A stretch of DNA of 20,622 nt from Vermamoeba vermiformis. Taxonomy: Eukaryota. The position numbers and the translations under genes are program-made. Below the pieces are notes generated by a model. The model ran no database searches and was not told where the DNA came from. It saw only the letters and a program-made list of their open reading frames with translations. The DNA is taken from the NCBI GenBank assembly GCA_045837725.1, contig JBEWZL010000126.1, forward strand, positions 434,001 to 454,622, read 5' to 3'. This document shows positions 2,071 through 12,920 of this stretch, piece after piece; within the stretch, counting starts at the first letter, position 1; every line of letters begins with the position of its first letter.

Positions 2071-3092
2071 TCACATGAATGCGAGCACGCACAAAGATAA
2101 GAATACAAAGCCACTGATTAAGTGAGTCGCATCACTGCTCAAAGATGAACCAGGAGTGTTGCCGGTGGTTTTTGAAGGTGAAGTACTGGTAGCGGGAGAG
2201 GTCGATGGATTAGTGGTCTGTGGAGCATTAGACGCGGGACAGTTTTCTTGAGGGAATGGTCGATCGCAGAACGGATTGCAATTCCAATTGCCGGGCAGAC
2301 TGTTTGACACGCGTTAGCTTAGTCACAACTCTATTGTTAGACTTACTAATAGTTGCAAACTACGGTATACATGCCATTGCAAAGCTTGATACCTAAGTAA
2401 CATGTTATCAGTACTATTATCGTAATCTTGATTGTCGCGTACCGCATCCGATCTGCGTGCTCGAAGACCAAACTATTTGAGTGTAATGGCCGCAATAATA
2501 CCAAGAACATTTGCCGTCCTGACAGCACTTGTTGGCGGCACAGTCCCAATATTGTTTCTCTGTTAGTAATCAGTGTTTAGATTCCATCAATGAGACGAAA
2601 GATTTGACACGCACCGCTGGCCCACATAGTGACAGAATCGGTCAGATCATCGGAATAGCCCCAAGCCATGTTCTCGCCCAAATCAGCTGCGCCACTGTGA
2701 CCAGAAGGACAGCCATCGACGTAATTTTGTGCAATCTCTAGGGATCGTGCGTGAGTATGCATTTTATCGGTTAAATTATTGCCAGAATTTAGCAATCGTG
2801 ATAGACTTACGCTCAATAGAGGTATTATATGTGACTGGTCCGAGACCAACCAACGCTCTTTCAGAGTTGTGAGCAGTAACGACTTGCTGAATTTGCGTCG
2901 ATCTGCATTATTATTAACATCAATCATGCCACGCAATAATATAATAACATTATTATAATATTATGCATAGGTATTAGAAAATATTCAACTTGCATTGAAG
3001 TTATTCTCGCGCAATTAATAATTGACTTACGTTAAAGCGTTTGCGACTGCAGCGAGTACAAGAACCAAAGCCACTTTAATAGTTGGATTCAT
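2071..3092 (-). CDS. CAP/SCP (PR-1-like) secreted protein with Ser/Thr stalk and probable GPI-anchor signal (~222 aa). Exons 3092-3031, 2902-2811, 2737-2615, 2559-2443, 2392-2347, 2299-2071
   Basis: Signal peptide MNPTIKVALVLVLAAVANA. CAP motifs AHNSERALVG, GENMAWG, CGHYTQIVW, IGCG and VVCNYYLPGN. An S/T/P-rich linker precedes the hydrophobic end LISGFVFLSLCVLAFM. Confidence 0.92.
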
Positions 3093-3613
3093 AGTTGTGG
3101 TTGTTCGAACGCGTGATTTAAAAAAGATACTGCGCGACATTGTGTTTGACATGCGTCACGCGTCGTTTTGCAGCGTATAAGTTATTCTCCGCAGAAATAA
3201 CGCGAAGGATAATAAAAATTAGTTGACGTGTTACTGGACAAGATTTACCGGTTCCAGTTCGCTTCATTGTACTGCGTTTGAATATTTAATAACGCTGCAT
3301 CTACGTTAAAAATTCTTATTTATCTTGTATTAAAGGACTTACGCACAAGAAGTTGCCTACACCAATGGGGTACTTTGTAATATTTTCTTATTTATCCAAA
3401 TCGGTTAATTTATATAAATTATCGGTATTAATTTCAAAGCCATAGTTTAAAGGAAATCGTAATGACGGCGGAACGAAAATGATTCCGTAATTAAATTGAT
3501 AGCATCCTAAAGTGTCGTTTTTACGGTCGGGGTACTCAGTGGTGTGGTAGTGTATTCATACAATTTTTCTTTTGAATTATTGTAACACGCAAACGTCCAC
3601 GTCTCTCGCAGCC

Positions 3614-4776
3614 ATGTCTTTGCCAAAAGTCTTGTTTATATGTATGTTTATCTCAATACAAGCTGTGCTGTCCGTGGAGGTATTCAAAATTAATCGATGT
3701 TCAACACCTCCTCAGCCTGACGCCTCGTGGAGCGGTAAGCAATCAATTGATCGTACATATGAGCGTAATAATACACAGTTAATAATATGGTCTGCTCGAC
3801 GAATTTAATTTTACACGAGGAAGACACTTAATAATAATTTTATTTGATTATTATCAATGTACGAGATTAATCTACGGATCTACAAATCATGATTGTATTA
3901 TTGTAATATCGATAGTATTTAATTATCTAGCTAATGTGAATAACAGAAATTGCTAATGTTACGAATTTCATGCTCGACGATGGATCTGCACCTGCAGTGC
4001 AACAAACCATGACATGGATGTGCTATAATGACGACAATGTATATATTAAATTTTTGTGCAAGGACAGTAAGTGGAACTAGAATGACAAGCAATAAGCGTG
4101 CAGATCTCAACACTGGTATTAATCTGGCTTATCAATCGTTATAGATAACATATTCTCGAAATATAAGAATTGTAACGACCCTCTCTACACGGAAGATGTC
4201 GTTGAAGTGTTTTTGACCGCACCAGGAACAGATCACGACAGCGTGGATCTGCATCATTATCTCGAAATTGAGTTATCGCCCAACTCCGTATTATTTGCAG
4301 CAAAGGTATGTACCCGAGACCTCTTATGCATCTACGGTATACCAATTGCCCTGCTCATCTTTGTAGATCACCAACACGAACTACTTATGCACGGGTATCA
4401 CCGACCAAAAAATTCCGTGCGATCAATCGGGCATTGAGTGGCAAGCTGAACGATTGGACGCGCAGAACCAGTGGTGGGGCTACTTGCAAATTCCTTGGAA
4501 ACTCATTGATGGTACGCTGAAATATATGACACGTGTCACAACACACAAGATACTCGCCTTGAACTGCCGTCTAATCCTTTATATTCAATAGACAAATCAG
4601 TCGATGAGCAAGGTAAATTGAATGTTGATTTGGCACATTTTACTTGGCGCGGTAACTTCTATCGCATTGACGTGCCGAAGAACAGCGACAAAGAGTACAG
4701 CTGCTGGTCCCCAACCATGGCGAGTCCTGCGTGCTTTCACAAACCTCTTTATTTTGGCGCTATTGTGCTCCAATAA
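3614..4776 (+). CDS. Secreted CBM9-like/DOMON-fold carbohydrate-binding protein (~243 aa). Exons 3614-3734, 3947-4066, 4145-4305, 4367-4511, 4592-4776
   Basis: Signal peptide MSLPKVLFICMFISIQAVLS. Motifs CYNDDNVYIKF, CNDPLYTEDVVEVF, YLEIELSPN, WWGYLQIPW, WRGNFYRID and WSPT...FHKPLYFG are typical of CBM9-like DOMON domains. All splice phases are compatible. Confidence 0.8.
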
Positions 4777-4920
4777 ACTTCTTAAGGCGTCACCATTGGG
4801 ACCATTTTTTGACAGATCTGTCACAGGCACGTGTCAAACTGGTTTTTGTTTGTAGGACAATCAGTGGCCAAAAGAACAGCACAACTTGTATCGACAGATA
4901 AATTTCCAAGCTTTTTCACA

Positions 4921-5905
4921 ATGGCCACGACAACTGCAAAATTTTTCGCCCTGCATCCTGGATTGGAGCTGGTAGATATTCCAAACAAAGGAAAAGGTAT
5001 CAATTAATTGTCATATATATTAAAAAATTATTCGATGCTCGAGCACGAATTCTGAGCAATAACCATCAGTTTCCTGAATAATAAATAATTTTTTAAAAAT
5101 AGGTTACACTGTCAATAAACCTATTGAAGTCGGAGAAGTACTAATCGAAGAGGACCCAATTATTAAGTCAAAATCAAACAAGATCATTGATATAGCCGAA
5201 GAACTTATTTTTGACAATCCCGAAGCATTCAAAGAGATCTACTGCCCCAAAGAATATCCAATTGTGCCTACTGGCTTCGAAGAGATTAGTGACCAAGACT
5301 ATTCGCGTGCATGCGCTCAAATTCAAGCAAATATCTTCTCAAACAACGAATACTTCTTGCTGAACTACAGAACAAGTTTTATTAATCATAGCTGCCGACC
5401 AAACGCTTGTTTTTATTTGGACCAAGCTATGCGCGTCAAGATCTATGCCATAGAGAAGATTGAGCCCGGTCAAGAGATCACTCTCTGCTACAAACAACAG
5501 ATCCTGGTACAACCGCTCGAGATGAGACAACAGTGGCTTAAAACGAATTGGTTCTTCGACTGTACTTGCGTCAAATGTACCGAAGAGCAGCAGAACCCTA
5601 AAAGCGCTAAAAAGATCGCTGAAGGATGGAAAGATTATGAATCGAGAAAAGAGGATCTGACCTCGTTACTTGCCGAAGACGAATTGTTTGAAGCAGCCAA
5701 GGTAGTGATGGACATTATGGACTACGAACATAACGTATGTCCTCTCTATCATAACTTCAAGCTGGTGAACTATCAGCTGTTGATGGGCCTGCTCAAACAA
5801 TTGAAAAAAGACGACAAACAAGCTGAAGCCAAGATCGTCGAGAATAAGATGAAAATGCTCGAATTGGATGTCTATGATAGAATAATAAAGATATTCAATA
5901 ATTAG
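4921..5905 (+). CDS. SMYD-like SET-domain lysine methyltransferase (~292 aa). Exons 4921-4996, 5103-5905
   Basis: nSET NKGKGYTVNKPIEVGEVLIEE, catalytic FINHSCRPN, GQEITLCY, post-SET WFFDCTCVKC and a helical C-terminal domain. Confidence 0.9.
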
Positions 5906-6014
5906 TTCTTCCTACAATCGTCTTCAGATCGCGATCTACTTTCTGATAAAATTCGCAAAATGCTCGTCAGGTAGAAAAGCCAACCTGCACACAGCTTTTT
6001 TTCATCATTTAACG

Positions 6015-6871
6015 ATGAGTAATACCACACTAGAACAATCTGCCACGGTAAGTGTCACCTAGTTAGCACTAACTACTGTACTTCCGACTTGACTTACGAA
6101 TTCTTGACTTTCAGATGGCAGAACCGCAAGACCAAGAAATGATAGAAAATATCCAAGGCGATATTGAATTTGACCCCACTAAGAAAAAACGATCTCGCAA
6201 ACGAAGAGAACAAAAGCTGGCTGAGGATTTGAATGAAGATCTCCAAATTGAAGAAAAACTCGAAACTAAACAAGAACCTGCAGAATATTCCTATGAAAAT
6301 GTAAGTATTTGTTATTTTATATCAACGAGTCTTACCCGTTATTTTCAGCTTGTCGATCGATTTTACTCCCGATTAGATCAGATGCGTTCAGGCCAAGAAG
6401 TCGCCAACAAAATTACTATGGAACCGCCTAAAGTTGGCCGTCAATCGATTAGATGTGCTTGGCTCAACTTTGCCAATAACTGCAAGAGCTTGAAGCGCGA
6501 TCAAAAGCACGTCATGAAGTTCGTATTGAGCGAGCTGGGTGCTAATGGAAATCTCGGTGGTGACAACAAGCTCGTGATCAATGGGCGATATCAAGCCAAA
6601 CACATCGAGGCTGTGCTCACTAAATATGCACGTAAGTAGCATGGCTTAAAAAAGCTGAGTTTTACCGTTAATTGCATCGCGTCGTGGATTTGCCTTCGTT
6701 TTTGTTCTGTTGATGAATCTAATATTAACGTTCGTCTCTATTATAGTGATGTATGTCCTATGCAAGCACTGCAAGAGTCCCAACACCGAGCTAGTCAAAG
6801 AAGAGCGATTACAAATGCTCAAATGCAACAACTGCACGTGCAAATACACCGTGCCCACTTTAAAGAAATAA
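6015..6871 (+). CDS. EIF2S2: Translation initiation factor eIF2 subunit beta-like (~208 aa). Exons 6015-6047, 6115-6300, 6349-6631, 6747-6871
   Basis: K-box FDPTKKKRSRKRR, YSYENLVDRF, core PPKVGR...NFANNCKSLKRDQKHVMKFVLSELGANGNLGGDNKLVINGRY, and zinc ribbon YVLCKHCKSPNT...LKCNNC. Confidence 0.88.
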
Positions 6872-7134
6872 CGCTTATTTTGATATTATGCTAATTGTAA
6901 ATATAATCTCATTTTCATATTTAAGGCAATAAACATCAGTAGATTAGAAATAACGTTAGAAGTGGATTTGCGCGCCAGAACAACCAAAAATAAATTTGAA
7001 TATTTCAATACGAATATGATGCTTAAAATGGTTATTACTATTAATATCGCGTATATTTATTACAAAACTATCACGAATAAGAATTGAAGTAACGATAAAA
7101 AATTTCAAATCTCATCCGAAAATTGAGGCTTAGC

Positions 7135-8183
7135 TTAGTTACGCTTCTTGGTCTTGGTGCCTTCGTCAACAGGCCACGAGCCAGGAGGCAAAGGAAGCAA
7201 TCTTGAGACAGCCTTCTGGTAGTTCTTGTATTGCGGGTACTTGGAGATGGAAATCTGCTCGGTGAAGGGAGTAGAGCCCTGGAAGAGCGCAGTCAACAAC
7301 AAAGCACCATAGCCGGTCCAGTTCCAGTACGAGGGTTGAGAAACAGCCAAAGAGAAGACAAAGAAGCACCACCACATTGCTTGTTCAGCGAAGAAGTTGG
7401 GATGGCGCGAGTAGCGGAAGAGACCGCTGTGAATGAATCCGTGAGCGAATTCGCCAGTCAAAGGCTTCTTGGCATCGATCAATTTCTTCTTGGCTTGTTG
7501 GAAGTTCCATTGTTGTTGATCCGCAACGGTCTCCATCAACAAAAAGAAAGCGAATGCGCCAGTAGCGGCGTAATCAATGTAGTTCAAGGGAGTTCCGCGC
7601 TTGAGCCATGCAAAGTACATTGGGAGCACGAACCAAGTGATGATAACGTTCTGAATGACGGCGATAAACGTGACATTCAACAGTTGGAAGCCGATGAAGC
7701 CCAACTTCTCGCGGAGGATCTGCCAGCGGTAGTCTTCACCGTGCCAAGTGTATCCTCCCTTGCGGCCAAAGTTATAAGAAAGACGTGCACCCCAAAGGGT
7801 AGCCAATACTGCCATAATAGCCAAGCGTTGATCGAGTTGGGTCGATTCGCCCGACAAGACGGGTTGAGCAACAAAATACCAAGCATAAATTACGGGCATA
7901 ATAGACCATAATTTATCGACTTGGGAATAGTTATTAAAGATAATTGAGCCAAAATAGCAATAGAAAATGAAGATGAGAGTCAAAACCACAACTCCAACGA
8001 GAGCGTCAGCGTGAATGAACCAGTTCCATGCTGAGCTAGGAGTAACAGTGCTCCAGTTGAGGGTGAGCGCTTGTTTGTATGTCTGCAATAACAACGCTAT
8101 TGCGTGCGCACCTGAAAATTCTAAATTCAAATACAAAAATTAGAATATTTAACTCTTTTTTAATTAAACACGGACATACCCAT
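7135..8183 (-). CDS. DUF1295 / steroid 5-alpha-reductase-superfamily integral membrane protein (~326 aa). Exons 8183-8180 (ATGG) and 8111-7135
   Basis: Motifs NYSQVDKLWS, WGARLSYNF.RKGG, GEDYRW, ETVADQQQW.FQ, GLFRYSRHPNFFAEQ and STPFTEQIS..KYP.Y..YQ..V, plus several hydrophobic helices. Confidence 0.92.
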
Positions 8184-8420
8184 GATGAGGTGGTGGTTAA
8201 CAGCGTCCGTAAATGCAACAAAGATTTATTGCAACCGTCACGAGATATTGATTTTTTGCCCGGGCCATTTTCCATAAAAGGAAAAACTGTTGTTACGCTT
8301 CGAGCGACCGCGTGACCCTAGATCCCGTAATCCGACTCCAGGAACAGCCCTCTCGGCTGGTGCTGTGAATAGGGACGATAACCTAGCTTTATTTGAGCAT
8401 CAACAAATCGCAACGTGAGG

Positions 8421-11400
8421 CTAGATCTGCGGATCCTCGCTCATGCTAGAGTCGTCCTCTTTATCGTCGCTATTGTACTCCTCGCGCGTTGGTTTCAGAC
8501 CTTTGAATCGAGTGGAGACCTTCACTAAGGCTTCTTCAGCAATTCCCCACTTGAAGAGCGGTTGATCGAGCTGTTCTTCCGTGATCTGACAAACACGTGC
8601 ATAACGACCTGATCCTAGTCGCAATTCGATATCCCACGACTGCGTTAATGCTATGCCAAGCTCTTTCATCAAATCAGCAATTGTTCCGTCAATGCGCATC
8701 CACACTTGTCGAACAATGTGGTGCTCGTTGAGTTTAATGTGAATGACTCTGAAGTGCATCATGCCCTTGCTCGACGAGGCCATGATCGAGTGCGGCTTCA
8801 GACGACCTTCAGAGATGTCGGCCAAGACATTGTTGGGGTTGTGTTCATTCTTCAATGCGATGTAAATATCCAGATCAATGCCCGTCACACCGCTGTCATC
8901 TGGCAGACCCTACGCCACAAATTAATACAAGTGTGTAGGTGGGTAATATATTGCCTGGCTAGCTTACCTGAAATATCACTCCCAAGAAGTAGCCAATGGC
9001 ACTGAGTGTCGCGCACAGTGACAACTTTGAGGTCGTGTGACCACCTCCACTAGCCAGTAATGGCAAGCTGAATTTAAGCCGTTTGTTGCCGTGCTTATCG
9101 ACTATACTGCCTTGTTCGTAGCACTTGATGCCGTGCTTTAAGAACGATTTGACGGCTTTGAAAATACGACCGGGAGAACCACCTCCTGTTGCTTCAGTGC
9201 CGCACAACAACCACAGTTGGAATCGATTGCTTATAGTGCCCATGCCTAATTGGTCAGGGTGAGTACTCGAGTCATAATATTGAAATAACACTTACGTTTG
9301 ACGCCACCATACTTCGGCACGTCAACGCCAAGAGCACCGTTCAAGAGATGAAGTTCTTCTAATTTCTTGCGATCATTTCGCAGCAGTGAGGCCAATACTT
9401 GACTGCCAAATACATTTGCAAGCACGTATCTATCTTGTCGCTTGATCACACCCACTGATGCAGCCACTAATTGACGGTAAGTACTCGAGTACAAAAACAA
9501 AATGCGAGCTCCTTACCGTGTCCCGTGATAGTCTTCGTGTCCATTACTTGATTCAATATTCGAACTTGTGCAAAGTCGCCAACAGGAATGCTATCATCGT
9601 GTTAGAGTTGATGAGGCTAAGTGGCTGGCAACTTACACAATCTTTTTGAACGGCGAGAAATTGACACCATCGTACACTTTCTTTTCTTCTTTGCTCACAT
9701 TCAGTTTATTTTGGAGGAAGTACGGCATTTGAGGTGTAGGCGCTACCCAGCCGAGAGCAGCGATTTCCCTGCTCGTGCGTTAGACCTATTAACACATCGA
9801 GATGAGTACTTACTTGAGTGCTTTGTTCGTAAGTTTCACTCGCTGCATGAATGGCAAGCTAGGGTCGAAGTGAATAGTCTGAATGTTGAAGTTCATCTGC
9901 AGATGTTGCACACGTGTCGGTGATACTTCATCGGGCGTGAGCCAAAAGTGAGGTCCAATGCCACCACCGAGACCTTCAGACACTTCATCGAGAATGCCTA
10001 ACAAATCACGATCTCTGAGCGATGTGCCAATAAAAAGGAAGCTGTACTCGGATGAAAGTTGTCTCAACAGCTCGTTCAGTGAAATGTCGCGCACCATCAC
10101 AGCTCTGTAGTCAGCATGTGACAGCACGAGTTCCTTACGACCACGTTCAGAGAAATCTCCGTGAAGCTTTAGTAACATTGGAGGCCGTCTTTGTGACTTC
10201 AACTCGGCGTAGAACAAGTGCACGTCTTCTCTGAATCTGACGGGCAAGTGCGTGCCTTCACGCAATGCGAACTTTGAAATCTTAACTTCATTGGCAGAAC
10301 TCTTGCTTATCCATGGGGCTTGATAGGACTACAGACGTTGTTAATTATAGCAAATATTAATCATAGAATGAACAGCATACCTGCTCTAACATCGCGTCCC
10401 AGTTTGTAGTCAAAAGTGCAGGCCAGGGTCCGCACACTAGCGGCTGTAGGTCTTGCAATGTCATGTCAAACATTGAGTATTTCGAGGGTGCATTTTGGAC
10501 ACTATTGCGTTTCTTTTTTCTTCCACTACCATTATTGTTGTTGTTGCTATTGTTGGTATTGTTGTTAGAATTGCTCGTTGTCGAAGCACTCGTGGTTGAG
10601 GAACTCGTAGTACTGTCACCACTTTCGGACGCATTATCAACGGCATTGGGATTGGCTGAGATGTGTTTCTCTCTGTTTTCAGGGATCTCTGCTGCTTTCC
10701 GTTCGAACTCTTTGAACTTCTGTTCGATGCTGCTCCACATGTCTTTGCCTTGCATTTTCAGATTTGAACAGCCGAATTGCGCCAAGACAGTCAAGTCTTC
10801 AGTCTGTCGAGCGCGCTCATAGTCATCTAACTGACCTGCTTCTTCCCACAGCAACTTCACAACACCTTCCCAGCCACCATAGCTGCACGAGACAGGTTAG
10901 TTTGGTCCCTCTCAATATATGCTCAATAGACGGTACGTACATATTGTAAGTGACACCTGCGCCAATCCAAGGCACAACACGACGTCTCGAAAGTCTGTGA
11001 ATCAATGCTTCAATGATGCTCGGTGACGCCATTGACTGTTCCAATGCACCTTCTTTTTTAGAGCGACGTCTAAATACAGGAGTGGGTGTTGGATTAGGTG
11101 ATGGCGGTAGCGGCGTTGTTGAGGCTGAATCAGTGAGGCTTTCAGTGGATGGGGCTCTGGAGATCTGATCGCTGCTGTCAAGCTCCGGAGCAATCGTGTC
11201 GCTGCTCGTTGTTAATAAAACATTCTTCTTAAACGCTCTTTTAGCCGTCGAGTCTTTGATTGGCTTTCCTTTCTGTAGCTCGATATATTGCTTCAATGGA
11301 GCGATTTTGTTGCTTCCTGTACATGTCGCGATTTAAATTTATATTTATATTTTAAAATTATTAATGGGTTGATTTGTAAATAGAAGTGGTATTATTGATA

Positions 11401-11623
11401 ATTGGCTATTTTATAAATTAATAATTAATTTTATTCATAGCATTCAGATCTAGCTGATTACTTACGACTTCGTGGAGTGTATTGAGGCTAAATTTAAATG
11501 TTATTATGGCTATCATTGTTGAACTGCACGTACCTTTGATTTTGAAGGAGCAGATCCAACCGCTCCTATCACAGTTATGCCAAATAAGAATAAGAACACA
11601 TATAAACAAAAGTATATAAACAT
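8421..11623 (-). CDS. Multidomain protein with a SIR2-like (SIR2_2, NADase-type) domain, a putative divergent macrodomain and a putative ubiquitin-like domain (~750-880 aa; 5' end uncertain). Exons [11623-11534, 11487-11466], 11316-10941, 10882-10381, 10328-9814, 9768-9637, 9590-9517, 9466-9296, 9245-8968, 8909-8421
   Basis: Exons join in frame through GT-AG introns. SIR2 motifs VVPWIGAGVT, GGWEGVV, LLTTNWD, LLKLHGD, LVLSHADY, FLFIGTSLRDRDL and PHFWL are present, with no sirtuin CxxC zinc motifs. Downstream FSLPLLASGGG is macro-like, and TIADLMKEL...LDQPLFKWGIAEEALVKV is Ubl-like. An alternative internal ATG lies at 11032. Confidence 0.85.
10528..10625 (-). repeat. Low-complexity Ser/Thr and poly-Asn (AAC/AAT) tract inside the SIR2 domain
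   Basis: Encodes GDSTTSSSTTSASTTSNSNNNTNNSNNNNNG; the plus strand shows (ttg/tta)n runs. Confidence 0.85.
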
Positions 11624-11768
11624 ATTTACAATTTACATTTGAGGTTATCTACGCAAAATAATACGAATGAATGAATCACCGAAAAACGTCAGAACAGGCC
11701 AATTTCCGTTTCAGTAATTTTCTCAACTTTCAATTCGTTATTTGCACTATGACGACCGATTATACTCC

Positions 11769-12920
11769 TCAACTTTGCGTATTTTCTTTCGTGCCAATAA
11801 ACTGATAGTAATCCACAACGATTGGTTTGCGCACCAAGTCATCGCCCTCATTCACAGGCCAGCGTTCACTCGCTGCATTGACGAGCGTCACATTGTCGAT
11901 CACTTGAAAGCCATAGCCTTCGTGCACATGGCCTATGTGATAAAGACACGAGTCAGTAGTGATCGTGACAGGACTGAATGGACACAGCTAGTGCCAGTAA
12001 GTTAGGTTCGTACCAAACACGTGCAAGTGTGGCTTGATCTCTTCCAACACACGCTTCTTCAAGGCTCTGCAGCCCCAATGCCGACCATTGGCCGCGAGGT
12101 CCATGATTGAGTGCGGCGGCATGTGGCTATCGAAGGGACCGTGATCAGTTTACATTTAATAGCTACTTAGTGCCAATGTCTCTTACGTAATTAAAATATC
12201 CACTTCATTAGGAATCAGCGCCCACTTCTCTTTTAAATTGTCTTTGGAACAACTGAATGCCATGTTTCTACGAGGTGGTAAAATGCGTCAGCAATGAGGG
12301 TGCTTATTCACGGTGTTTTAATACGTACCGACTGCCTTGCCACGGTGTACCATATATTTTCAAGCCTTCGATCTCAATAAATGTGTCTTGCAGGTAAACG
12401 CCTGAAAATTCTAATGAGATCCGGGTATCTCTTCGTGCGCTGACTTACAGTTGTATAATAATCGATCGATTTTTTCTTTTGAATATCTGTTGAACAAGTA
12501 TTCATGGTTTCTATGCACAGGTGCGTAAGCGAAATTGGATCGAATAAAAAAATAATTCATCTTCATACCCAGCAATTACAACTCTGTGTTTGAAATTCTG
12601 CTTGCCCAACCACTTATTGAAATCTTTGTACACTGCTTTCTCCTTGCTGCGCTTCACAAAGTCGCCTAATAAATTTAAAATTAAAGACCTAACGTATTAA
12701 TTAACCTACCTGCATGAATCAATACATCGCCTTCTGGAATTTTGAGCTAATGGATTTGGGGTGTAAATAAAATTATTAAGCATATTGGATGTGGACGTAC
12801 ATGTGGATGCAAGTTGTGCGTGTCGCTTATTAAAACTAACCGCCATTTCTTATAATTTTTGCTATTTTTTTGTGCGTCAGTTAAGCCGTATGGTACCTCT
12901 AATATAGGCACGTTGTCCAT
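11769..12920 (-). CDS. Calcineurin-like metallophosphoesterase, MPPED1/2 (239FB)-like, about 8 exons
   Basis: Spliced motifs RLVLISDTHN, IPEGDVLIHAGDF, VVIAGNHE, YLQD...GLKIYGTPWQ, VDILITHMPP, GCRALKKRV and PHLHVFGHVHEGYG. ATG at 12920, TGA at 11771-11769. Confidence 0.92.

Follow-up and report, generated by a model that had tools for sequence, protein, structure and literature searches.

The closest described systems to the protein considered here are the ThsA proteins of Thoeris, which fall into two characterised types. In type I ThsA (B. cereus, structure 6lhx), an N-terminal SIR2 effector is followed by a C-terminal SLOG ligand sensor, a TIR protein (ThsB) serves as partner, and NADase activity is abolished in the BcThsA mutants N112A and H152A, as reported in PMC7272460. 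Type II ThsA (TM-Macro; EcThsA, 8v6r) has a transmembrane effector and a macro domain, and PMC11204291 describes ThsA macro domains as binding ADPR and IAD, lacking hydrolase activity and oligomerising on binding. The linkage of SirTM sirtuins to macrodomains and the fungal macrodomain-SirTM fusion Mfs1 are established (PMC4518038); in the SirTM system, a hydrolytic macrodomain reverses SirTM ADP-ribosylation. Eukaryotic "SIRim-Macro" fusions (clade C) were reported in a 2024 preprint, which proposes an immune role for them from architecture alone (10.1101/2024.09.18.613514).

We analysed a stretch of 20,622 nucleotides from Vermamoeba vermiformis (contig JBEWZL010000126.1), hereafter the window, in which a gene on the minus strand encodes a SIR2 domain followed by a predicted divergent macro fold and a ubiquitin-like domain. 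Among SIR2 domains, that of type I ThsA is the closest by sequence, with the catalytic Asn and His kept, and the predicted layout, an N-terminal effector and then a C-terminal ligand sensor, is also alike; however, the type I sensor is SLOG instead of a macro fold with a ubiquitin-like domain, and no TIR partner was seen among the ORFs scanned next to three bacterial homologues. With type II ThsA the window product shares a macro-fold putative sensor, found as a structural match, whereas its N-terminus is SIR2_2 and not a transmembrane effector. SirTM/Mfs1 resembles it in that eukaryotic microbes join a sirtuin to a macrodomain within a single polypeptide (PMC4518038), but Mfs1 is a class M sirtuin with an N-terminal macrodomain, while the window product is SIR2_2 with a C-terminal macro domain in which loop 1 is degenerate. 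The likeness to SIRim clade C, judged by architecture, lies in an antiphage-type SIR2 fused to Macro in a eukaryote; the preprint, in its accessible text, mentions no ubiquitin-like domain (10.1101/2024.09.18.613514), which the window product has. Vertebrate FAM118A/B (SIRanc) are likewise eukaryotic homologues of antiphage SIR2 domains, although the preprint places them in a separate clade (clade A; 10.1101/2024.09.18.613514) and no Macro or ubiquitin-like domain is described for them in the texts consulted.

The earlier note on this DNA knew of no characterised eukaryotic protein with this architecture. That it is uncharacterised stands, but it had already been noted in print, in the preprint (10.1101/2024.09.18.613514), so that SIR2-Macro in eukaryotes is uncharacterised rather than unknown. 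A literature search under SIR2/sirtuin-macro fusion names returned no paper, the preprint (10.1101/2024.09.18.613514) wording the architecture otherwise. We regard the present case as a well-supported annotation, drawn from sequence comparison and predicted structures, of an architecture noted bioinformatically before.

Gene model and domain layout

The modelled gene contains seven introns of 45–58 nt, each read from the sequence as GT..AG, and its spliced coding sequence of 2253 nt encodes 750 aa without an internal stop. The features referred to below are as follows.

8421..11032, minus strand: modelled gene body, 8 exons, product of 750 aa
11032-10941, 10882-10381, 10328-9814, 9768-9637, 9590-9517, 9466-9296, 9245-8968 and 8909-8421, minus strand: exons 1 to 8
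8423-8421, minus strand: stop codon of the modelled gene
11033..11315, minus strand: probable coding extension upstream of the modelled ATG; open frame without ATG, Ser/Thr/Pro-rich
9814..11032, minus strand: NADase-type SIR2_2 domain, ThsA-like, aa 1-370 (exons 1-3)
9637..9768, minus strand: exon 4, linker from SIR2 to macro, its last residues beginning the first strand; no Pfam family
8850..9656, minus strand: predicted divergent domain of macro fold, roughly aa 408-608, from the end of exon 4 through exons 5-7 to the start of exon 8, introns counted in the span
9040..9069, minus strand: Gly-rich loop SLPLLASGGG, aa 555-564, aligning with macro diphosphate-binding loop 2
8793..8819, minus strand: linker motif DISEGRLKP, aa 619-627, between the macro and ubiquitin-like domains
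8502..8768, minus strand: predicted beta-grasp domain of ubiquitin-like type, roughly aa 636-724; an acidic tail then runs to the stop codon

The peptides quoted in the earlier note were all recovered on the minus strand, where it had placed them, once the seven introns were removed, and the span that it gave for the macro region, 9768-8850, runs from the first base of exon 4 to the last base of IDLDIYIAL. Landmarks in the spliced product are HVAASVG (438-444), FGSQVLASLL (458-467), LWLLCG (506-511), SLPLLASGGG (555-564), LSAIGYF (576-582) and IDLDIYIAL (599-607). The splice model is supported because residues 195-723 are colinear with P0002, a database gene product of a relative (59.8% identity, 537 columns), because five of the seven introns (1, 4, 5, 6 and 7) are matched by RNA or contig joints in runs X1, X3, X21 and X23, and because dN/dS for the modelled gene against the syntenic locus L004 is as low as 0.038 over 728 codons. 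Intron 6 (9246-9295) is skipped by raw RNA-seq reads, 8 in X21 and 23 in X23, and X1 and X3 contigs skip it too; for introns 2 and 3, the comparison with these four runs lists no joint. These data show a genuine gene that is spliced, is expressed in a relative and evolves under strong constraint. It is probably longer at the 5' end than modelled, with its true start in an upstream exon. The 5' extension (11033..11315) shows 77% amino acid identity to L004 over 96 columns and a dN/dS of 0.159 over 93 codons against the same locus, the Met codon of the window at 11032 is Gln in L004, and an X3 contig runs unbroken across 10967-11255.

The sole sirtuin family found with Pfam was PF13289 (SIR2_2), matched by exon 3 at E 1.3e-18; the same exon matched the PADLOC models LmuA (1.7e-9) and ThsA1 (1.7e-6), and exon 2 contributes a low-complexity Ser/Thr/Asn-rich insert inside the domain. 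For full-length homologues the best PADLOC match was ThsA1, in the SIR2 half only, at 1.6e-17 for P0004 (profile positions 15-228 of 478) and 5.6e-15 for the L003 gene (positions 15-295 of 478). The catalytic-position Asn191 (TTNWD, aa 189-193) lies at 10402-10404 and His254 (KLHGD, aa 252-256) at 10161-10163, both on the minus strand, and when P0004 was aligned to BcThsA (6lhx), its Asn and His fell on N112 and H152. Judged by alignment, the catalytic Asn and His of ThsA are retained in the SIR2 part of the window product.

A third domain after the macro region, missed in the first reading, is predicted to be a ubiquitin-like beta-grasp fold. Modelled with AF2, exon 8 of the window itself (pLDDT 81.9) has the order strand-strand-helix-strand-strand-helix-strand, and the Foldseek matches, nine of them at E <= 0.001, include OTU1 UBX-like (TM 0.70-0.71), a ubiquitin variant (0.70), TBCE Ubl, USP15 UBL and SUMO. 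The linker motif preceding it has the family consensus D-x-x-x-G-R-x-x-P. A conjugation-type C-terminal Gly-Gly is absent from the window product, which ends in an acidic tail, and the bacterial homologues stop directly behind the last strand and likewise lack GG.

The predicted macro-fold domain

The region C-terminal to SIR2 had been called a divergent macrodomain from weak similarity seen by eye, and at the level of fold this call holds, a divergent macro-fold domain being supported both by a predicted structure and by profile comparison. The structural evidence comes from an AF2 model (pLDDT 80.3, pTM 0.81) of a fragment of P0002, the closest full-length homologue at 53% identity (104/195 residues, or 53.3%, in the macro part), and not of the window's own product. 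The multiple alignment behind the model was shallow (31 rows), and the linker is mostly predicted to be disordered, residues 1-44 of the fragment having pLDDT < 50. Foldseek with this model returned 71 PDB matches at E <= 0.001, macrodomains leading; 33 of the 41 matches listed were macrodomain proteins, with a best E of 3.7e-5 and target-normalised TM-scores of 0.47-0.69. The fragment model, a three-layer alpha/beta/alpha fold, superposes, as the earlier note had expected of a predicted structure, on solved macrodomains, including macroH2A, Af1521, viral nsP3, MacroD1/2, PARP9 and the ThsA macro domain. The type II ThsA macro matches were 8v6r (EcThsA, with ADPR; E 1.7e-4) and 8v6s (E 5.0e-4), with a TM to target of only 0.47.

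At the level of profiles, hhalign aligned 113 columns of the C-terminal family with 18 canonical macrodomains, taken from Myxococcota genomes, at a probability of 86.7% (E 4.4e-6); the controls gave E-values of 0.46 for the reversed alignment, at least 0.14 for all 20 column shuffles, and 0.41 for the ubiquitin-like part as query. Together with the Foldseek matches, this shows a likeness to macrodomains beyond what chance would give. No PADLOC ThsA macro model was matched at the sequence level. Pfam Macro (PF01661) gave weak matches (E <= 10), in the loop-2 region, in 4 of the 31 family members, the best of which scored 16.9 bits, so that none reached the cut-off of 22 bits. The window's own single exons had no Pfam Macro match, and exons 4, 5, 7 and 8 matched no Pfam family at all. 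When PDB sequences were searched with the C-terminal profile, the one match was a lysophospholipase at E = 1, taken as noise, and a Protein Atlas search with the P0002 C-terminal part gave a best score of 0.76 (SIR2_2 cluster), which is a lead only. Against L004, the macro part has a dN/dS of 0.044 over 192 codons. SLOG was considered for the C-terminal domain and rejected, as ThsA1 matches break off ahead of the SLOG half or shortly into it and the fold search gave macrodomains.

SLPLLASGGG, first matched by eye to the Gly-rich loop of macrodomains, was placed there again by both Pfam and hhalign, the loop being aligned to positions 71-116 of 118 in the Pfam Macro profile and set by hhalign against the 'P-l-g-t-G-x-g-G' of canonical macrodomains. 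The pattern PLLAxGGGxL is conserved family-wide, from Myxococcota to the window, and no other element of the domain is conserved so well. Macro loop 1, an Asn with a GGG, forms the distal-ribose site, is catalytic in MacroD-type enzymes and is associated with hydrolysis. It has no conserved counterpart in this family, 'AxSV...' replacing 'NAAN...GGG' in a forced global hhalign of low alignment confidence there, and the Asp that contacts adenine in the first strands likewise varies among members (GDF in the window, different in others); the nucleotide pocket may therefore be altered or lost. Because the Gly-rich loop is kept and the Asn/GGG loop is not, the sequences suggest that the domain may be a binder rather than a hydrolase.

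Proposed function and rival explanations

We give a probability of about one half to the reading that a ThsA-type SIR2 NAD+ hydrolase domain, a divergent macro fold and a ubiquitin-like domain form a three-domain protein that acts as a ThsA-like ligand-switched NADase. The macro domain would bind an ADP-ribose-containing ligand through the conserved Gly-rich loop, binding would change the oligomeric state, perhaps aided by the ubiquitin-like domain, and this change would switch on NAD+ cleavage by the SIR2 domain, giving a self-contained stress or immune NADase. NADase activity, ligand binding, ligand identity, the activation step and a eukaryotic immune role are points that we infer. More speculatively, and with the odds against it, the protein could be a eukaryotic stand-alone Thoeris-like immune switch, in which the macro domain senses either a second messenger derived from ADP-ribose or an ADP-ribosylated product made by a virus, with no dedicated TIR gene next to it, and, with the ubiquitin-like domain, assembles an NAD+-depleting SIR2 oligomer. 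Such a design would be common to Myxococcota and would combine a type I effector and a type II-like sensor. Should the SIR2 NADase prove to be gated by the macro domain, a eukaryote would have sensor and effector for ADP-ribose-type signals in a single polypeptide, which would permit a direct test of Thoeris-like NAD+-depletion immunity outside bacteria. In that case the added ubiquitin-like domain and the changed loop 1 would also hint that the ligand, or the way the protein assembles, differs from those of both characterised ThsA types.

Of the competing explanations, a degenerate macro fold deserves the most weight, although we consider it unlikely. The domain would then be a scaffold without nucleotide binding, forming with the ubiquitin-like domain, itself a typical protein-interaction fold, the oligomerisation or protein-interaction module of a SIR2 effector regulated in some other way. 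Loop 1 and the adenine-binding Asp, neither conserved, and a similarity to Macro below the Pfam cut-off fit such a loss, but the element most conserved from Myxococcota to the window is the Gly-rich loop at the diphosphate-binding position, and the low dN/dS given above shows strong constraint on the whole domain. Much less plausible is a modelling artefact, with the domain adopting another Rossmann-like alpha/beta fold such as SLOG/LOG, as in type I ThsA; we consider this very improbable. The shallow alignment, the modest Foldseek E-values (1e-4 to 1e-5) and the range of target-normalised TM-scores leave it some room, yet the 41 Foldseek matches listed include no SLOG/LOG entry, the PADLOC ThsA1 matches end short of the SLOG half or near its start, and the Pfam Macro matches and the controlled hhalign comparison point to Macro independently of the model.

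It is also conceivable, if rather improbable, that the protein writes a mark and also erases or reads it: its SIR2 domain would ADP-ribosylate (or deacylate) a protein target, and its macro domain would remove or recognise that modification or O-acetyl-ADPR, as in the SirTM/macro pairs and Mfs1. The established sirtuin-macrodomain linkage and fungal fusion (PMC4518038) lend this some support. A NUDIX gene directly upstream of the L003 homologue is compatible with it as well, and the NUDIX family includes ADP-ribose-degrading enzymes. However, the sirtuin is SIR2_2/ThsA-like and not of a classical class, the domain order is the reverse of that in Mfs1, the loop 1 residues associated with hydrolysis are not conserved, and the characterised ThsA-type SIR2, BcThsA, cleaves NAD+ according to PMC7272460.

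Homologues and gene neighbourhoods

The C-terminal module is rare, with 31 representatives at E <= 0.001 among 1.84 billion, and all 14 members found with the C-terminal profile that have a recognisable N-terminal domain carry SIR2_2. When genome contigs were searched for related loci, the family alignment found two, and P0005 alone found none. The earlier suggestion that bacterial homologues of the same architecture might lie in defence islands was borne out in part. Such homologues are present in Myxococcota, and the one at L003 is flanked by the NUDIX gene, by an MrcB_N gene and by BREX-type genes (BrxD at 5.9e-135, PglZ and an Lhr-like helicase), but at L001 and L002 glycosyltransferases and an AAA ATPase are seen instead, leaving a defence-island context at a single locus. 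Neither a TIR gene nor any other gene for making a signal turned up among 20 ORFs in L001-L003 or 10 ORFs in the window, a scan that took in the larger ORFs and that, at L001 and L002, ended with the gene.

In a tree of 19 C-terminal modules, from which nine fragments were left out (P0001, P0010, P0012, P0019, P0027, P0028, P0031, P0033 and P0034), the window clade had support of 100/100, and it grouped with other eukaryote-like rows against GC-rich intronless rows with support of 82/91. The tree is unrooted, and therefore no donor can be named. A DUF1295 gene neighbours the SIR2-Macro-Ubl gene.

Gene model, expression and constraint

The stretch at 8850-9768, in which the earlier note had proposed a divergent macrodomain C-terminal to SIR2, sits within an intron-bearing eukaryotic gene on the minus strand. 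The exons derived from the sequence are:

Exon 1, 11032-10941, minus strand
Exon 2, 10882-10381, minus strand
Exon 3, 10328-9814, minus strand
Exon 4, 9768-9637, minus strand
Exon 5, 9590-9517, minus strand
Exon 6, 9466-9296, minus strand
Exon 7, 9245-8968, minus strand
Exon 8, 8909-8421, minus strand

The seven introns are all GT..AG and 45-58 nt long, and the joined exons form a 2253-nt coding sequence with no internal stops. The 750-aa product is colinear with P0002, a relative's gene product in the database (59.8% identical across 537 columns), and contains, in their expected places, all the peptides that had been read from the DNA by eye; exon 4 opens at 9768, and 8850 is the last base encoding IDLDIYIAL.

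No stop codon interrupts the 100 codons upstream of the modelled ATG (11033-11332, minus strand). The stretch is conserved with L004, a metagenome locus (77% amino acid identity over 96 columns, with indels that keep the frame, and dN/dS 0.159), where Gln replaces the window's Met at 11032. The true start codon therefore probably lies in an upstream exon, beyond the modelled ATG; an acceptor-like ACAG/G occurs upstream of that ATG, at about 11316. Between this gene and a phosphoesterase-like gene upstream of it (11781-12134, minus strand) lies a further block conserved with L004 (11543-11685; 62-72% in all three tblastx frames, with stops in each). It is probably non-coding sequence under conservation, from a promoter or a 5' UTR.

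Four public sequencing runs (X1, X3, X21 and X23) were compared with 8300-11500. Introns 7, 6 and 5 each had an exactly matching joint. The joints at introns 4 and 1 differed by four substituted letters at the junction, a divergence to be expected of a relative; for introns 2 and 3 these runs listed none over this range. Intron 6 was supported by raw RNA-seq reads (8 in X21, 23 in X23) and by contigs of X1 and X3. Raw RNA reads were 90-95% alike to the window in 300 of 304 cases (X21) and 411 of 431 (X23), and show that a related organism expresses the gene, which need not hold for the window's own strain. L004 and a second metagenome locus, L005, are syntenic and orthologous, 68-85% identical at the nucleotide level across some 10 kb. 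Against L004, dN/dS was 0.038 for the window gene (728 codons), 0.044 for the macro part (192 codons; dS 1.27, near saturation) and 0.025 for the last domain (130 codons), and intron similarity at orthologous places was not recognisable.

Domain architecture

Exon 3 matched Pfam SIR2_2 (E 1.3e-18) and, in PADLOC, LmuA (1.7e-9) and ThsA1 (1.7e-6). ThsA1 was the best PADLOC match of the full-length intronless homologues, limited to its SIR2 half (P0004, 1.6e-17, profile positions 15-228 of 478; the gene on the bacterial metagenome contig L003, 5.6e-15, positions 15-295). When P0004 was aligned with BcThsA (6lhx, PDB sequence search, 2.7e-7), the Asn of T-x-N-W fell on N112 and the His of K-L-H-G-D on H152; the window counterparts are TTNWD (aa 189-193) and KLHGD (aa 252-256). 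In BcThsA, N112A and H152A each abolish NAD+ cleavage (PMC7272460). Between the GAG motif and TTNWD, exon 2 (about 10500-10650, minus strand) places a low-complexity insert rich in Ser, Thr and Asn inside the SIR2 domain, with a basic RKKKR patch after it; the region could hold a nuclear-localisation-like element. The insert looks like a variable region; public contigs break or differ there, with a 3-nt deletion (X1, at 10491) and loose ends at 10527-10566.

Judged on sequence, the last 370 residues are close to orphan. Pfam recognised no family in exons 4, 5, 7 and 8, and a PDB sequence search gave no match. A profile built from five C-terminal stretches was searched against 1.84 billion representatives and recovered only 31 proteins at E <= 0.001; 21 of these reached <= 1e-10. 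Structure was modelled on the C-terminal stretch of P0002 (373 residues, 31-row alignment) rather than on the window's own product, to which its macro part is 53.3% identical (104/195 columns). Mean pLDDT was 80.3 and pTM 0.81; pLDDT dropped below 50 only in the 44 N-terminal residues, at residues 96-98 and in the final five. Foldseek returned 71 PDB matches at E <= 0.001, and 33 of the 41 listed were macrodomain proteins, including macroH2A (7ny6, E 3.7e-5; 3iid, TM to target 0.68), type II Thoeris ThsA macro domains (8v6r, 1.7e-4; 8v6s), Af1521, viral nsP3/X domains, MacroD1/2 and PARP9. The other eight listed were one hypothetical protein, four designed hydrolases and three SPX fusion constructs; no SLOG/LOG entry was among the 41.

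Membership by Pfam's own threshold was not supported: Macro matches were sub-threshold in 4 of the 31 proteins, the best being P0022 (16.9 bits, cut-off 22). These matches cover profile positions 71-116 of 118, the same strand, Gly-rich loop and helix that the earlier note had paired with the macrodomain pattern. With hhalign, the family's macro part aligned to 18 canonical macrodomains from genomes related to the Myxococcota homologue (probability 86.7%, E 4.4e-6, 113 columns), and the controls were negative (reversed alignment, E 0.46; best of 20 column shuffles, 0.14; the family's last domain as query, 0.41). Because Foldseek and independent sequence evidence agree, the macro call, made originally on weak resemblance, is supported at the level of fold and homology.

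The window's own exon 8 (162 aa; 30-row alignment, pLDDT 81.9) was modelled as strand-strand-helix-strand-strand-helix-strand. Foldseek matched it to ubiquitin-like beta-grasp domains, among them those of tubulin cofactor E (Ubl, 1.2e-4), OTU1 (UBX-like, TM to target 0.70) and USP15 (UBL), the NORE1A RA domain, ubiquitin variants and SUMO; nine matches had E <= 0.001. The predicted domain order is thus SIR2, then macro, then a ubiquitin-like domain, in which a Gly-Gly end was looked for and found absent. The linker between the latter two carries D-x-x-x-G-R-x-x-P after the last macro strand (window DISEGRLKP, 8793-8819, minus strand), the consensus continuing L-x-R-x-x-x-G, and is among the best-conserved stretches of the C-terminal module.

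Putative pocket and possible functions

The most conserved element, PLLAxGGGxL (window SLPLLASGGG, 9040-9069), aligns with the macro diphosphate-binding loop; W-L-x-x-G-Q with the Gly-rich turn after it, and L-x-A-x-G-x-F, are also conserved. Canonical macro loop 1 is an Asn plus GGG. It has no conserved counterpart in the family, a forced global alignment placing A-x-S-V there with low confidence, and family members vary at the acidic position that follows the first strands (window GDF). The pocket may be altered or lost; taken together, these residues speak more for a module that binds than for a MacroD-type hydrolase. ThsA macro domains bind ADPR and IAD without hydrolysis and oligomerise upon binding (PMC11204291).

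The finding is real and its fold call right. We give roughly even odds (about 0.5) to a ThsA-like NADase, in which the macro domain would bind an ADPR-type ligand, binding would control SIR2 NADase activity through oligomerisation, and the ubiquitin-like domain would serve as an extra interaction module. A degenerate macro scaffold that no longer binds nucleotide, consistent with the poorly conserved loop 1 and set against the retained diphosphate-loop element, is less probable. A sirtuin/macro writer-eraser pair is rather unlikely; the fungal fusion Mfs1 joins a macrodomain to SirTM, but it has another sirtuin class and the opposite domain order (PMC4518038), and the loop 1 residues associated with hydrolysis are not conserved here. 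That the macro call is a modelling artefact is very improbable beside the controlled hhalign result.

The characterised Thoeris effectors are SIR2-SLOG and TM-Macro. The SIR2-macro architecture is already in print and not new: a 2024 preprint sorts the antiphage-type SIR2 ("SIRim") proteins of eukaryotes into five clades and notes SIR2-Macro in eukaryotes computationally, from HHpred and AlphaFold (10.1101/2024.09.18.613514). Our literature search for "SIR2-macro" wordings found no paper under that name.

Relatives and genomic context

SIR2_2 was found in 14 of the 31 aligned members scanned, the rest being fragments or beginning inside the module, and no other N-terminal domain family was seen among the 31. 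Ten full-length proteins, 517-604 aa long and encoded by GC-rich genes without introns, have the same architecture. Two homologous loci in Myxococcota MAGs (L001, L002), both cut by contig ends, neighbour glycosyltransferases, an RNase T-WYL gene and an AAA ATPase. L003 carries a complete homologue, and its neighbours also include a trypsin-like peptidase gene:

2202-3074, plus strand, NUDIX gene, 64 nt upstream of the SIR2-macro-Ubl gene on the same strand
3138-4907, SIR2-macro-Ubl homologue
5079-12785, downstream, MrcB_N and a BREX-type set: Lhr-like helicase, BrxD (5.9e-135), PglZ

L003 is a defence-island setting at a single locus, the one instance located of the same-architecture bacterial homologues that the earlier note had suggested seeking in such islands. 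Of the partner genes that the note had also suggested seeking, no TIR gene appeared in 20 bacterial ORFs (L001-L003) or 10 window ORFs scanned; the window gene's neighbours among these were SET, eIF2-beta, lipocalin and, by Protein Atlas, DUF1295.

In a tree of 19 C-terminal modules, the window clade had support of 100/100 and clustered with further eukaryote-like rows, apart from the intronless ones (82/91). The tree is unrooted, and we therefore claim no direction of transfer.

A second, more distant eukaryotic homologue (loci L006 and L007), found in the same two metagenome sets as L004 and L005, appears to share the exon layout, with about 40% amino acid identity in the macro and ubiquitin-like parts and 69% in SIR2 exon 3; it is either a paralogue or from another species. 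Seven eukaryote-like, low-complexity-rich database homologues (P0024, P0025 and P0030-P0034), one of which (P0032) also has SIR2_2, contain the macro loop and ubiquitin-like module together with long inserts that are acidic or rich in Gly. The C-terminal module may be wider among protists than the window's clade.
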